A stretch of 64,000 nucleotides of DNA from Acidobacteriota bacterium (GTDB taxonomy: Bacteria > Acidobacteriota > UBA890 > WLXD01): positions 1 through 64,000 of the forward strand of contig CAXWPL010000002.1 of assembly GCA_963666215.2 (NCBI GenBank). The letters are read 5' to 3'. The notes below the pieces were generated by a model. It ran no database searches. It saw nothing but the letters and a program-made list of their open reading frames with translations, and was not told where the DNA came from. Both the position numbers and the translations under genes were made by a program. Shown here in pieces: positions 31,126 through 62,735 of the stretch (positions within the stretch are counted from its first letter, which is position 1; each line of letters starts with the position of its first letter).

Positions 31126-31209
31126 TACCGAGGGAGGGACTCGAACCCTCACTCCCTTGCGGGAACCGGATTTTGAATCCGGCGCGTCTGCCAATTCCGC
31201 CACCCCGGC
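31126..31209 (-). tRNA. tRNA-Leu(CAA)
   Basis: GCCGGGGTGGCGGAATTGGCAGACGCG-CCGGA-TTCAAAA-TCCGG, long variable arm, GGTTCGAGTCC; CCA not encoded. Confidence 0.95.
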
Positions 31210-57958: not shown

Positions 57959-58331
57959 GGATACTCTCTGTCGCCGGTTGGCCGCACGCAGCTGCTCCTG
58001 CCCGATCGGCGCAGGACGGCCTCGAGAAGGCAGGCCGAGCGGGAATCCGACTGTGTCCGTATATCGACGGCTGACGGAACGGTCGACCGCCACGGGTCAG
58101 TCGCTGCCTCGATCGACGCTCGTCACGCCATCACGCCGTTAACCGGGAACGCGAGGCCAGCTGTGGCCAGTGTCCTTTGACGCTGGCTGCCATCGACTCC
58201 TATCCTGCGCAAATGCTAATTCTGCCAGCCGCTCACAGGGTCGATAGACGGTCAGCGTGCGGCTGCTCGGCCTGATCATGACGATTAGTGCGCGCTCGAT
58301 GCGACTGCTCCTATTCAATGGTGGACGTCGA

Positions 58332-59279
58332 ATGCCCCATCGCCACCCTCTCGCCGCGCGCCAAACGGGCCTTGCCGCGTTGCTGGTCGCCCTGCTGACG
58401 TTGCCACCGTTGAGCAGCGCCTCCGCGCTGGCCGCCACCGCCGTCTCGGGCTCGGTGGCGATGCGCGGCTTCTTCGCGATGCGCTCGGCTTCGGCGCTCG
58501 ACGCCGAAGCACGTCTTCTCGACGTTCTCGACCGCGGTCGCATTGCCGATTGGGCGCGCCGGCTTGCTCAGCAGCCGCGCATTGCGGGAACCGATCGCAT
58601 GAAGGAAACAGCCGATTGGGTTGCCGAACGCTTCGGCCAATGGGGCCTCGAGGTCGAGATCGACACGCACGACGTGTATCTGCCGCACGCCCTATCGGTG
58701 GCGGTGGAGCGCCTCAACCCGGACCCGAGTCCGTTGTCGTTACGCGAGGACGCAGTCAGCGAGGATCCGGACTCAGCCGCCCCGCTCTACCCAGCCGCAA
58801 ACGGTTACTCTGCGGCCGGCGATGTTCGCGGCTCGGTGATCTACGCCAACTACGGCCGCGCCGAGGATTTCGACGCCCTGAGCGCCTCTGGCGTTTCGGT
58901 CGACGGCAAGGTGGTGCTGATGCGCTACGGACGGGTGTTTCGTGGCGTCAAGGCACGCAACGCTGAGGCCGCCGGTGCTGTCGCGGTGCTGCTCTACTCG
59001 GATCCCCTCGACGACGGGTTCTTTCGTGGTGACGTCTATCCGAATGGCCCTTTCCGGCCGTGGAGCGGACTGCAGCGGGGCTCCGTCCGCTGGGGAGCGC
59101 CGGGCGACCCGGCCCCCCAGCACGGTGGGTCTGCCGCCGGTCGGCCGTGAGATCAACCATCTCGCCTGGAGCTCGCGTCGCTGGCCGCGGCCATCGATTC
59201 GGCGGCTGTTGAGCTCGAGTCGGCCGTTCATCTGTTGACCGACCGGACCCTACGTCGGCGAGGCGTCGATACGCCCTAG
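58332..59279 (+). pseudogene. Glutamate carboxypeptidase II/transferrin-receptor-like M28 peptidase with the catalytic domain deleted
   Basis: PA domain (YANYG, RYGRVFRGVK, YSDP, QRGS, PGDP) stops at 59150; the helical tail LELASLAAAIDSAA follows; no M28 zinc motifs. Confidence 0.7.
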
Positions 59280-59304
59280 GTGCGACCCTGGCCTTGGTGC
59301 GGGC

Positions 59305-59596
59305 AAAAAAAGAACAGGCGATCCCCGTGAACGGCCTCCCCGAATGCAGCCGGTCCCGGGAACTGCCTCTGCTCCGAACGAGGTCTGCCCCTAACGGCCA
59401 CGTTCTACGCCTGCTTCGCGCGAGGCCTCGGGAATCCCGACCGACAAGCCTCCCACCGATGCGCGGTCGGGGCTGTGCCGGCGCATCGGAGTTGTCGACG
59501 TCCCGAAGGACGAGCTTCGTGTTCAGCAGACAGCAAAGACGTTGTTGAACCCGGGGCGCGCGGCTGACCCGTGCGGCCTGGAGGATCGCCTGAACG
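59305..59596 (-). ncRNA. Candidate ~280-nt structured RNA (6S/Ms1-like rod with branched apex)
   Basis: Ends pair (CAGGCGAUCCUC with GGGGAUCGCCUG); nested helices; U7 tract at the 3' end; upstream TTGACA-N17-AATGAT. Confidence 0.7.
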
Positions 59597-59601
59597 CGCA
59601 G

Positions 59602-59630
59602 ATCATTTTTCCTGGGCGCGGGTTTGTCAA
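59602..59630 (-). promoter_or_regulatory. sigma-70-type promoter of the candidate ncRNA
   Basis: TTGACA-aacccgcgcccaggaaa-AATGAT. Confidence 0.6.
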
Positions 59631-59726
59631 CCAGCCGCCGCGAGGATCCCCCTGTGGACGTCCTCGCCGAGACGCCAAAGCACTCATGACAAAGGATTTC
59701 GGCCCGTAACGGCGAATCCGGCTTCG

Positions 59727-59755
59727 TTGTGGAAAAGTCCGACGCGCTGTACAAT
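59727..59755 (+). promoter_or_regulatory. sigma-70-type promoter of carD
   Basis: TTGTGG-N17-TACAAT. Confidence 0.55.
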
Positions 59756-59828
59756 CCCACCTTGTGGGCGCGGCGAGAGCTGTTTCTCGCGAGCTGCAAG
59801 TAACGAAGCTAACGAACGGGGGGTCGCA

Positions 59829-60350
59829 TTGCGTTTTGAGGTCGGCGACAAGGTCGTCTATCCGAACCACGGCGTGGGCGTCATCGAGGACATCAAGCGT
59901 CGGGCGATCGCGGACACAGATCAAAATTTCTATCATCTTCGGATCCTGGCCAACGACACCATCGTCATGGTGCCGGTTGGGAATTCGAAGGCGGTCGGGT
60001 TGCGCAAGATCTTCCGCAAAGCCGAGGTCAAGAAGCTCTACATCCACCTCCGCGATCCCGATTTCGAGACCCACAAGAACTGGAAGGGTCGCTACAAGGA
60101 AAACGCCGAAAAGATGCGCTCCGGGCACCTCGTCGAGATGGGCGACGTGCTCAAGAATCTGATGCACCTGTCGCAGCGCAAGGCGCTTTCCTACAGAGAA
60201 AAGCGGATGTACGAGAAGGCCAAGACGCTCACCCTCTCTGAGGTGGCGATCGTCGAGGGCGACTCGGAGAACGATGTCCGCAAGAAGATCGAGGAGGCGC
60301 TCGCCGACTGCATGGTGGCGCGCGAAGCTCGCAAGTCGAAAGCGTCCTGA
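59829..60350 (+). CDS. carD: CarD/CdnL RNA-polymerase-binding regulator
   Basis: FEVGDKVVYPNHGVG, VMVP, GLR, NWKGRY with the conserved Trp, LSYREKRM. Confidence 0.9.
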   Translation: MRFEVGDKVVYPNHGVGVIEDIKRRAIADTDQNFYHLRILANDTIVMVPVGNSKAVGLRKIFRKAEVKKLYIHLRDPDFETHKNWKGRYKENAEKMRSGHLVEMGDVLKNLMHLSQRKALSYREKRMYEKAKTLTLSEVAIVEGDSENDVRKKIEEALADCMVAREARKSKAS

Positions 60351-60422
60351 TTCGGTGCGATAGCCGGCCGACTCGGCTTCACGCGCACGCTTCCGCCACG
60401 CCCCGCTAAGGATCTCCGCCTC

Positions 60423-61700
60423 ATGGACGCGCTCAAGCGACTCTCCCTGCCCACGTGGATCGCCATCGGCATGCTGATGGGCATCCTGGTGGGAGTCTTG
60501 TTCGGCGAGTCGGCGACGATGATCAAGCCGCTGGGCGACCTTTTTCTGCGGCTGATCCGCATGGTTGTGGTGCCGCTGGTCTTCTCCTCGCTGCTCGTCG
60601 GCACGGCGATGCTCGGAGACCCCAAGCGTCTCGGGCGCATTGGTGGGAAGACGCTCGCGTACTACATGTGCACCACGGCAATCGCGATCGTCATCGGCCT
60701 GGTGATCGCCAACGTGGTGGAGCCGGGATCGTGGATCGACACCGAAACGCAGCAGCAGCTTCTCGCCAACTTCGCCGGCGACGCCGACGGTGCCGCGGGT
60801 CGTCTACGCGAGCGTCCGAGCGTCACCGATACCTTGTTGAACATCGTGCCCACCAATCCGGTGGCGGCCATGGCCGAGGGCTCGATGTTGCAGATTATCT
60901 TCTTCGCGCTGCTCTTCGGCGTGGCCCTGACGCTGATTCCGAAAAAGACTCATCGCGAGCAGGTCTTGGTGTTTTTCGACGGCATCAACGAGGCGATGAT
61001 CCAGATCGTCCACATGGTGATGAAGCTGGCGCCGATTGGAGTGCTGGCGCTGATGGCGGCGGCGATTGGGCAGTTCGGACTGGACATCCTGGGCGTGCTT
61101 GTTGCTTATGCCGCATGCGTGGTGGTTGGCCTGTTGCTCCACATGACGATCGTTTACGGAGGTGTCGTCAAGCTGTTCGCCGGCATGTCGCCGATGCGCT
61201 TCTTTCGTGGCATCCGGCCGGCGCAGCTGATCGCTTTCTCGACCTCGTCGAGCAGCGCCACTCTGCCGGTCACCATGCACCACGCAACGCACGATCTGGG
61301 AGTTTCGGAGCAGATCTCGGCCTTTGTACTGCCGCTCGGTGCCACCGTGAACATGGACGGCACGGCTCTCTACCAGGGAGTCGCCGCCGTCTTCATCTCA
61401 CAGGTCTACGGGATCGACCTTGGCCTGAGCGGTCAGGTGACGATCGTACTGATGGCGACACTGGCCTCGGTCGGAGCCGCTGGAGTGCCGGGCATCGGCG
61501 TGATCACACTGGCGATGGTGCTCGAGCAGCTCGGCCTGCCGCTCGAGGGAATCGCGCTCATCCTTGGTGTCGATCGCGTTCTCGACATGCTGCGCACGGC
61601 GACCAACGTCACCGGCGACGCCTCGGCCGCGGTGATCGTTGCGGCGAGCGAGGACCAGCTCTGGAAGGCGCCGCCGAAGGACGCGACCGCGAGCGCCTAG
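60423..61700 (+). CDS. Dicarboxylate/amino acid:cation symporter (DAACS)
   Basis: AFSTSSSSATLP, GATVNMDG, DMLRTATNVTGD. Confidence 0.92.
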   Translation: MDALKRLSLPTWIAIGMLMGILVGVLFGESATMIKPLGDLFLRLIRMVVVPLVFSSLLVGTAMLGDPKRLGRIGGKTLAYYMCTTAIAIVIGLVIANVVEPGSWIDTETQQQLLANFAGDADGAAGRLRERPSVTDTLLNIVPTNPVAAMAEGSMLQIIFFALLFGVALTLIPKKTHREQVLVFFDGINEAMIQIVHMVMKLAPIGVLALMAAAIGQFGLDILGVLVAYAACVVVGLLLHMTIVYGGVVKLFAGMSPMRFFRGIRPAQLIAFSTSSSSATLPVTMHHATHDLGVSEQISAFVLPLGATVNMDGTALYQGVAAVFISQVYGIDLGLSGQVTIVLMATLASVGAAGVPGIGVITLAMVLEQLGLPLEGIALILGVDRVLDMLRTATNVTGDASAAVIVAASEDQLWKAPPKDATASA

Positions 61701-62662: not shown

Positions 62663-62735
62663 GGCGGTGTAGCTCAGCTGGCAGAGCAGGCGGCTCATAT
62701 CCGCCGAGTCGGGGGTTCAAGTCCCTCCACCGCCA
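62663..62735 (+). tRNA. tRNA with CAT anticodon, most likely elongator tRNA-Met
   Basis: GGCGGTG acceptor, GCGG-CTCATAT-CCGC anticodon arm, GGTTCAAGTCC. Confidence 0.9.

Follow-up and report, generated by a model that had tools for sequence, protein, structure and literature searches.

What is transcribed from the spacer between carD and the shortened peptidase gene that faces it in an Acidobacteriota bacterium (assembly GCA_963666215.2)? The DNA in question comprises positions 1 to 64,000 of contig CAXWPL010000002.1, the whole of which is called the window here, and a reading of its letters alone (the sequence-only reading) had placed in this spacer an unlisted structured RNA of ~280 nt, divergent from carD, that has a promoter of its own and ends in a U-tract. 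Promoter scanning, alignment and covariation bear this out, with the predicted length corrected to ~291 nt. That the element is a genuine RNA, and one of a new family, is almost certain. Comparison of sequences indicates that the family occurs in a single class of Acidobacteriota and that this 290-nt RNA is its largest paralogue. The gene and the parts that define its two ends lie as follows.

~59595 to 59305, minus strand: RNA gene, ~291 nt, its start inferred 7 nt past the -10 element and its end taken as the end of the U-tract
59602 to 59630, minus strand: sigma-70-type promoter, with -35 TTGACA (59630-59625), a 17-nt spacer and -10 AATGAT (59607-59602)
59592-59581, minus strand: 5' strand of the closing stem P1, 12 nt, CAGGCGAUCCUC
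59326-59315, minus strand: 3' strand of P1, GGGGAUCGCCUG, the perfect complement of CAGGCGAUCCUC
59314-59305, minus strand: terminator-like U-tract, UUCUUUUUUU, immediately 3' of P1

The sequence features on which the sequence-only reading had drawn (TTGACA-17-AATGAT, the closing stem, the hairpins and the U-tract) are all present on the minus strand, and the interval that it gave, 59305-59755, stretches further, across the promoter and some way into the spacer on the carD side. In a consensus scan of 58800-60400 this promoter was the sole promoter-like site (10/12 matches to consensus, with 0.3±0.5 such sites expected from shuffles), and a terminator-like site at 59328-59314 with a following tail was likewise found by consensus scan. 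The TTGAC of the -35 element is invariant in 9/9 homologues, an ATAAT-like -10 element lies at a conserved distance in the alignment, and T-rich tails are found in the 12 homologues, some of them weaker (e.g. L005, L006). Because the promoter, the U-tract, the many G-U pairs and reverse-strand model scores of just 10-15 bits all agree, the strand of the RNA is fixed as minus. A covariance model built from the family alignment of the 290-nt RNA (R1) matches the window over 59303-59601 at 205 bits.

Homologues were sought at several levels. Searched at the DNA level, 41 related genomes gave matches in 8 of the 10 other genomes of the same taxonomic family and in 0 of the 30 genomes outside it, and R1 gave full-length matches of 234-296 bits in nine of those ten relatives. 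A loose DNA pattern scan of genome contigs returned at least 119 stretches; among the 80 matches listed, R1 confirmed three convincingly and matched two further ones weakly, at 19.7 and 13.5 bits. The pattern scan of metagenomes returned seven stretches, five of which were full-length homologues (two duplicating known loci and two scoring identically to each other), one a weak partial match and one without a match. The resulting homologue set holds 12 distinct sequences from ~4 lineages, and covariation was computed on an alignment of nine sequences.

This comparison carries the case for structure, since the fold of the single sequence was no better than chance (minimum free energy (MFE) -139 kcal/mol, z-score -1.58, equalled by 5 of 100 shuffles); the opposite strand gave a z-score of -2.24. 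Across the carD-upstream homologues, 23 of 66 pairs in the nine-sequence alignment are compensatory, as against 11.0±2.2 in shuffles, and none of 500 shuffles reached 23. Sliding the pairing partners as a control left only 3-9 pairs changed on both sides, and 92.2% of the cells of the same alignment are paired. When the four lineages were folded separately, a common architecture emerged, with an irregular basal rod made of ~60 nt of each end and an apical multi-branch domain. The principal elements beyond P1 are these.

59578-59575 with GGCC inside 59332-59342, minus strand: P2 (helix 2), GGCC paired with GGCC, 98.1% paired
59332 to 59342, minus strand: family signature CGGGGAGGCCG, 3' strand of the basal helix
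59540 to 59549, minus strand: A/C-rich bulge on the 5' side, UUCAACAACG, asymmetric, the opposite strand having few or no unpaired bases
59512-59499, minus strand: hairpin P4 (helix 5), CGUCC-UUCG-GGACG, 100% paired, two of three counted pairs changed on both sides
59441 to 59498, minus strand: apical branched domain, in which P5 encloses P6 and an internal GGGAGGC (59454-59448)
59498-59492 with 59447-59441, minus strand: P5 (helix 6), 7 pairs, 100% paired, 4 changed on both sides
59489-59456, minus strand: hairpin P6 (helix 7), CCGAUGCGC.../...GCGCAUCGG, 12 pairs, 92.5% paired, 3 changed on both sides
59439-59429, minus strand: hairpin P7 (helix 9), CGGGA-U-UCCCG, 5 pairs, 77.3% paired, 3 changed on both sides
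59376 to 59405, minus strand: apical block GAACG...GGGGCAGACCUCGUUC, the highest sequence conservation in the apical domain, with CGUUC invariant and its flanks nearly so

Eleven helices were recognised in total, and the best supported are P1, P5 and P6, together with the small hairpins P4 and P7. P1 (helix 1) has 12 pairs, is 100% paired and contains two pairs changed on both sides, with A-U replaced by G-C in 4 of the 9 sequences and C-G, U-G and U-A occurring as well. A strict helix search returned just P1, P5 and P6 plus a set of mutually exclusive pairings between repeats; alignment columns 29-61 may pair with columns 245-272. The repeats are GGGAGGC, which occurs twice in the 290-nt RNA (59448-59454 and 59334-59340, minus strand), and CUCGYYC, which also occurs twice; several pairings among them are possible, and none has compensatory support. 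The internal copy of GGGAGGC lies in a small loop (helix 8). The apical block at 59376-59405 may possibly form a pseudoknot with GG(G/A)CGGG at ~59457-59452, as the candidate partners (~59457-59452 and 59382-59376) show a 7-pair complementarity, in which no pair has changed on both sides. The unpaired bubble UUCAACAACG described in the sequence-only reading survives in part: the stretch is present, but some of it pairs in the single-sequence MFE fold, and it forms a one-sided bulge. Of the four lineages folded, g1 and g3 show an A/C-rich unpaired 5' stretch, and g2 and g4 fold otherwise at that place.

The RNA is also represented in RNA libraries. Part of the window was found in six metatranscriptome runs from five studies, and four runs from four studies, labelled as sponge or seawater metagenomes plus one coded organism, were compared over 58800-60500. 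Each contributed a single contig over the RNA.

59339-59584, strand not given by the contig: run X14, depth 6.2
59328-59586, strand not given by the contig: run X16, depth 64.8
59325-59583, strand not given by the contig: run X17, depth 16.6
59366-59588, strand not given by the contig: run X19, depth 86.9

Every one of these contigs, at 223-259 nt, falls along its whole length within the RNA with 0-1 differences, and together they span 59325-59588. The other 1.4 kb of the compared region was uncovered, save for a 165-nt piece of carD at depth 2.8 in X14. The element is therefore present as RNA while its flanks are nearly uncovered, and the silence of the flanks argues against carry-over of DNA. 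As contigs of this type come without strand, end and abundance information, they are read here for that presence only. At position 59366, the contigs of two seawater runs from different studies carry T where the window carries C, which is probably a strain difference.

Outside the taxonomic family of the window genome, R1 detected related RNAs in a sister family. These RNAs of 180-186 nt align to both ends of the model and lack ~110 internal positions. They are preceded by an A-tract and a TTGACAG-17-TAnnnT promoter and end in a U-tract, their MFE folds are rods, and in their consensus structure 12 of 33 pairs are compensatory. Two sequence types can be told apart among them. A second covariance model built from these ~184-nt RNAs (R2) found one to three copies in 15/15 sister-family genomes, including a third form of ~109 nt. 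This shortest form (L183:1501-1609, L184:1501-1609) has the same basal helix and promoter and lies beside a homoserine dehydrogenase gene; most sister-family genomes contain it. R2 also identified a second family member in the window genome itself, 184 nt long and scoring 80.8 bits (contig 3, 156580-156763, minus strand; L179:1501-1684), which sits between genes for a CarboxypepD_reg-like protein and a GT4 glycosyltransferase. In the 10 remaining genomes of the taxonomic family the same model found no further paralogue; there, 101-150 first-look candidates were scored per genome and a copy could have been missed.

Taken together, R1 and R2 find at least one member in every class genome but one (25 of 26), the exception being a genome that is 71% complete, and beyond the class R2 gave only two 22-bit matches in 101 phylum genomes, which were taken as chance. 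What the 109-, 184- and 290-nt forms have in common is a basal module conserved in sequence, in which a 5' part, YCRGGYGA...CCNGGCC, pairs with a 3' part, GGAGGC(N)(N)UCGYGG..AUCRCCYG, and is followed by a U-tract; the apices differ, and in the 290-nt form the apex holds the second GGGAGGC. The window RNA carries all that defines the family, namely the basal module, the U-tract and its own TTGAC -35 element. The neighbours of the paralogues are unrelated to one another, encoding a glycosyltransferase, a sodium symporter, citrate synthase, an HtrA-like protease or homoserine dehydrogenase. Literature searches on 6S RNA in Acidobacteria and on CarD, 6S and RNA polymerase showed no description of this RNA in the titles or abstracts listed, which is no proof of novelty.

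The sequence-only reading had likened the RNA to 6S and Ms1, regulatory RNAs that bind RNA polymerase, and had set it outside the usual genomic context of 6S. A scan of the whole window against Rfam (4227 families) returned, at the gathering score, nothing but two transfer RNA genes (62663-62735, plus strand, and 31126-31209, minus strand). Within 59000-60000 there was no match at E<=10 to 6S, 6S-Flavo, Acido-1 or Acido-Lenti-1; a match to CC3664 at that threshold (15.9 bits, where the gathering score is 60) was set aside as chance. Eleven sister-family loci compared with Rfam gave nothing relevant.

The class as a whole appears to be without a recognisable 6S RNA. The Rfam 6S family RF00013 (gathering score 46.4 bits) matched 66 of 101 genomes in the phylum sample, 62 of them above the cut-off, and at E<=1 had no match in any of the 26 genomes of the class. 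In the whole window genome it gave no match at E<=10; control genomes did match. The signal recognition particle RNA, RNase P RNA and transfer-messenger RNA were all detected elsewhere in the window genome, leaving 6S as the common housekeeping RNA that was not. At 20 canonical acidobacterial 6S loci, zapA lies upstream in 19, rny downstream in 16 and both in 15, and neither gene was found beside any locus of the new family, so the context of the window RNA does differ from the zapA-6S-rny arrangement of the phylum, as had been supposed. The window genome retains zapA-rny-ymdB, with a 265-nt spacer between zapA and rny (contig 2, 467653-467917; L185:2836-3100) that shows no Rfam match at E<=10, no excess structure (z-score -0.28) and conservation in 0/10 family genomes. 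A search for 6S near rny in five further class genomes found none, and in two sister-family genomes zapA was not found beside rny. From the 0/26 matches to RF00013 and the empty zapA-rny site, it appears that the class lineage lost canonical 6S or that its 6S diverged beyond recognition.

What, then, does the RNA do? Because no 6S is detectable in the class and the window genome has nothing at the ancestral 6S site, we consider a 6S/Ms1-like role, in which the RNA binds RNA polymerase, the most likely function, with a probability of roughly 40%. Under this proposal, the stand-alone gene yields a presumably abundant, ~291-nt structured RNA with a long irregular basal rod, which the 12-bp stem and the U-tract close, and a branched apex. 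An abundant protein would bind to the conserved basal helix and so be titrated, RNA polymerase being the most plausible candidate. The 184-nt forms would then correspond to 6S in size, and the 290-nt form would be a paralogue enlarged by an extra domain. The strong consensus promoters of the 184-nt forms, with their upstream A-tract, are counted in favour of such polymerase titration. The resemblance to 6S extends to general design, as the window RNA is non-coding, comes from a gene of its own and is closed by a long irregular helix between its 5' and 3' ends, and the ~184-nt sister forms match 6S in length and predicted rod shape. Several 6S paralogues per genome are also known from Bacillus. 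For the B. cereus group they are described in PMC7726162, and the conservation of 6S in length (~180 nt) and structure rather than in sequence is covered by PMC11077062 and PMC9130861.

Several results weigh against polymerase binding. Membership in 6S or Ms1 is itself not supported, as there is no Rfam match, R2 found nothing at the 20 canonical acidobacterial 6S loci, no covariance-model similarity exists in either direction, and the lengths differ: the 290-nt form is ~100 nt longer than 6S and lies outside the range of ~160-220 nt, within which the 184-nt paralogues fall. In place of a two-sided central bubble, the 290-nt form is predicted to combine a basal rod and branched apex with an asymmetric 5' bulge. 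Where 6S conserves the surroundings of its central bubble, the new family conserves the sequence of its basal helix, which could dock any protein. The lack of a 6S match does not predict the new RNA, since a further 27 genomes in the phylum sample have neither a Rfam 6S match nor a member of the family. A test by the largest loop in the MFE fold was uninformative, because loop size separated canonical 6S from nothing (median 9 nt for canonical 6S, 9 nt for the 184-nt forms and 7 nt for the 290-nt form, with 2 nt on its smaller side). Finally, the metatranscriptome contigs give no strand, true ends or abundance, and their depth cannot rank genes.

One precedent is Ms1, which in mycobacteria is ~300 nt long. 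Two papers describe it as an actinobacterial RNA that binds the RNA polymerase core (PMC11077062, PMC9130861), with homologues of ~230 nt and synteny with a HAD-hydrolase gene (PMC9130861). The window RNA resembles Ms1 in its size class, in that Ms1 has a 6S-like structure undetected by 6S models, and in that both belong to lineages without an identified 6S. They differ in lineage and setting, Ms1 being actinobacterial and beside the HAD-hydrolase gene whereas the window RNA is acidobacterial and beside carD and a peptidase gene with a PA domain. The scan of all 4227 Rfam families gave no match to Ms1, though whether Ms1 is among these families was not checked. In Corynebacterium glutamicum, further structured RNAs on RNA polymerase are reported from RNA immunoprecipitation sequencing in the absence of 6S or Ms1, according to PMC11077062; compared by description, they serve as a conceptual precedent only for 6S-less lineages. 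Acido-1 (RF01686) and Acido-Lenti-1 (RF01687), presented as orphan non-coding RNA motifs of Acidobacteria in PMC2864571, are distinct from the window RNA, as neither matches it at E<=10.

A more elaborate version of the polymerase-binding proposal is offered only tentatively. Next to 6S and Ms1, to which it has no sequence relationship, the family may be a third type of RNA that sequesters RNA polymerase, one that evolved independently, replaced 6S in this class and diversified into three sizes with one docking helix, the extra branched domain of the 290-nt, carD-linked paralogue perhaps engaging the complex of RNA polymerase and CarD.

The alternative that survives best, although we find it doubtful, keeps the RNA as a protein-binding scaffold and changes the partner from RNA polymerase to some other RNA-binding protein or ribonucleoprotein, with the basal helix and its GGGAGGC/GAG internal loop as the dock and the apices specific to each paralogue. 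The conservation of the base in sequence, and not just in pairing, beside unrelated apices is a pattern typical of a common protein anchor, and the placement of the paralogues in unrelated housekeeping contexts fits it as well. Against it, none of the paralogues has a candidate gene for such a partner linked to it, and the two best-known partners of structured RNAs of this kind are not found in the window genome, which is 91.7% complete: neither CsrA (PF02599) nor Ro/TROVE (PF05731) gave a match, and no Rfam Y RNA was matched. A CsrA sponge of the CsrB/RsmZ type and a bacterial Y RNA are both unlikely for the lack of these genes.

It is improbable that the family consists of trans-acting small RNAs that base-pair with C/U-rich targets through GGGAGGC, or that mimic a Shine-Dalgarno sequence and engage the 3' end of 16S ribosomal RNA. 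Small RNA families of several copies often share a seed, GGAGG fits the Shine-Dalgarno core perfectly and is invariant across all forms, and the internal copy of the motif in the loop of helix 8 would suit such pairing. The 3' copy, on the other hand, is mostly paired within the basal helix (helix 2, at 98.1%), a 290-nt RNA with 11 helices is far more structured than is usual for base-pairing small RNAs, the motif is not followed by a start codon, and the RNA has no conserved open reading frame (ORF).

The genes on either side of the RNA bear on the two weakest alternatives.

59823 to 60350, plus strand: carD (CarD/CdnL family; CarD_TRCF_RID 5.1e-15, CarD_C 2.8e-24), divergent neighbour
58257 to 59150, plus strand: truncated peptidase gene with a PA domain match, convergent neighbour

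The start of carD lies ~227 nt from the start of the RNA. By eye, a candidate carD promoter, TTGTGG-17-TACAAT, can be placed at 59722-59750 (plus strand), below the threshold of the scan. In the relatives the peptidase gene runs ~465 residues further, to just before the RNA terminator, and that part is gone here; of the 497 residues in the C-terminal part of a relative's peptidase, just residues 4-31 match the window (at 59028-59111), from which it seems that ~1.4 kb was deleted from the window gene.

The sequence-only reading had proposed that the RNA and carD form a regulatory pair, and a role as a carD-specific partner, whether through divergent transcription that regulates carD or through binding of CarD or its complex with RNA polymerase, is one that we consider very unlikely. 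The adjacency stands: carD adjoins the RNA in 9/9 family loci from 4 genera, always beside the same arrangement of genes, and the two are divergent with starts ~227 nt apart. In X14 the depth is 6.2 over the RNA and 2.8 over the carD piece, and carD is without a contig in X16, X17 and X19, depth being no measure by which genes can be ranked. The functional pairing, in turn, is not supported. The whole block of peptidase (convergent, upstream), RNA, carD and dicarboxylate symporter (downstream) is syntenic in the family, so the adjacency may be inherited, and the two starts are too distant to share promoter elements. One sister-family genome has its carD more than 1.9 Mb away from the paralogues, a second has it on a different contig, and near the sister-family carD genes, as near the second carD-like gene of the window genome, unfiltered R1 scores do not exceed 6.8 bits. 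The second family member of the window genome, moreover, sits at an unrelated locus. As the block is syntenic and the sister-family carD distant, adjacency to carD is a trait of the one family and may reflect no more than inheritance, and a specific functional link between the RNA and carD is only weakly suggested. The second CarD-family gene of the window genome (contig 5, 1587196-1587681; L200) is 48% identical to the window carD and has no family RNA beside it.

That the element is instead a peptidase-gene remnant, a small protein gene or a chance structure can be dismissed, for all that its single-sequence fold is not significant (z-score -1.58) and the adjoining peptidase gene is truncated: the peptidase is intact in relatives and terminates right before the element, the residues missing from the window gene have no match in it (which rules out a remnant), no conserved ORF was found in the 12 homologues, in which the longest started ORF varies from none to 63 codons (which rules out a small protein gene), and the strong covariation, conserved promoter and RNA-library contigs with nearly uncovered flanks all speak for a functional RNA.

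To our knowledge, large, highly structured bacterial RNAs that lack a known function are rare, and here the smaller paralogues of the window RNA pinpoint a putative docking helix that all forms share. If the RNA binds RNA polymerase, 6S would be replaceable by an unrelated RNA outside Actinobacteria, and the forms of 109, 184 and 290 nt would make a natural series for dissecting which parts are needed. Even with another protein as its partner, the family would represent a class-wide ribonucleoprotein in poorly studied Acidobacteriota from the sea and from sponges.

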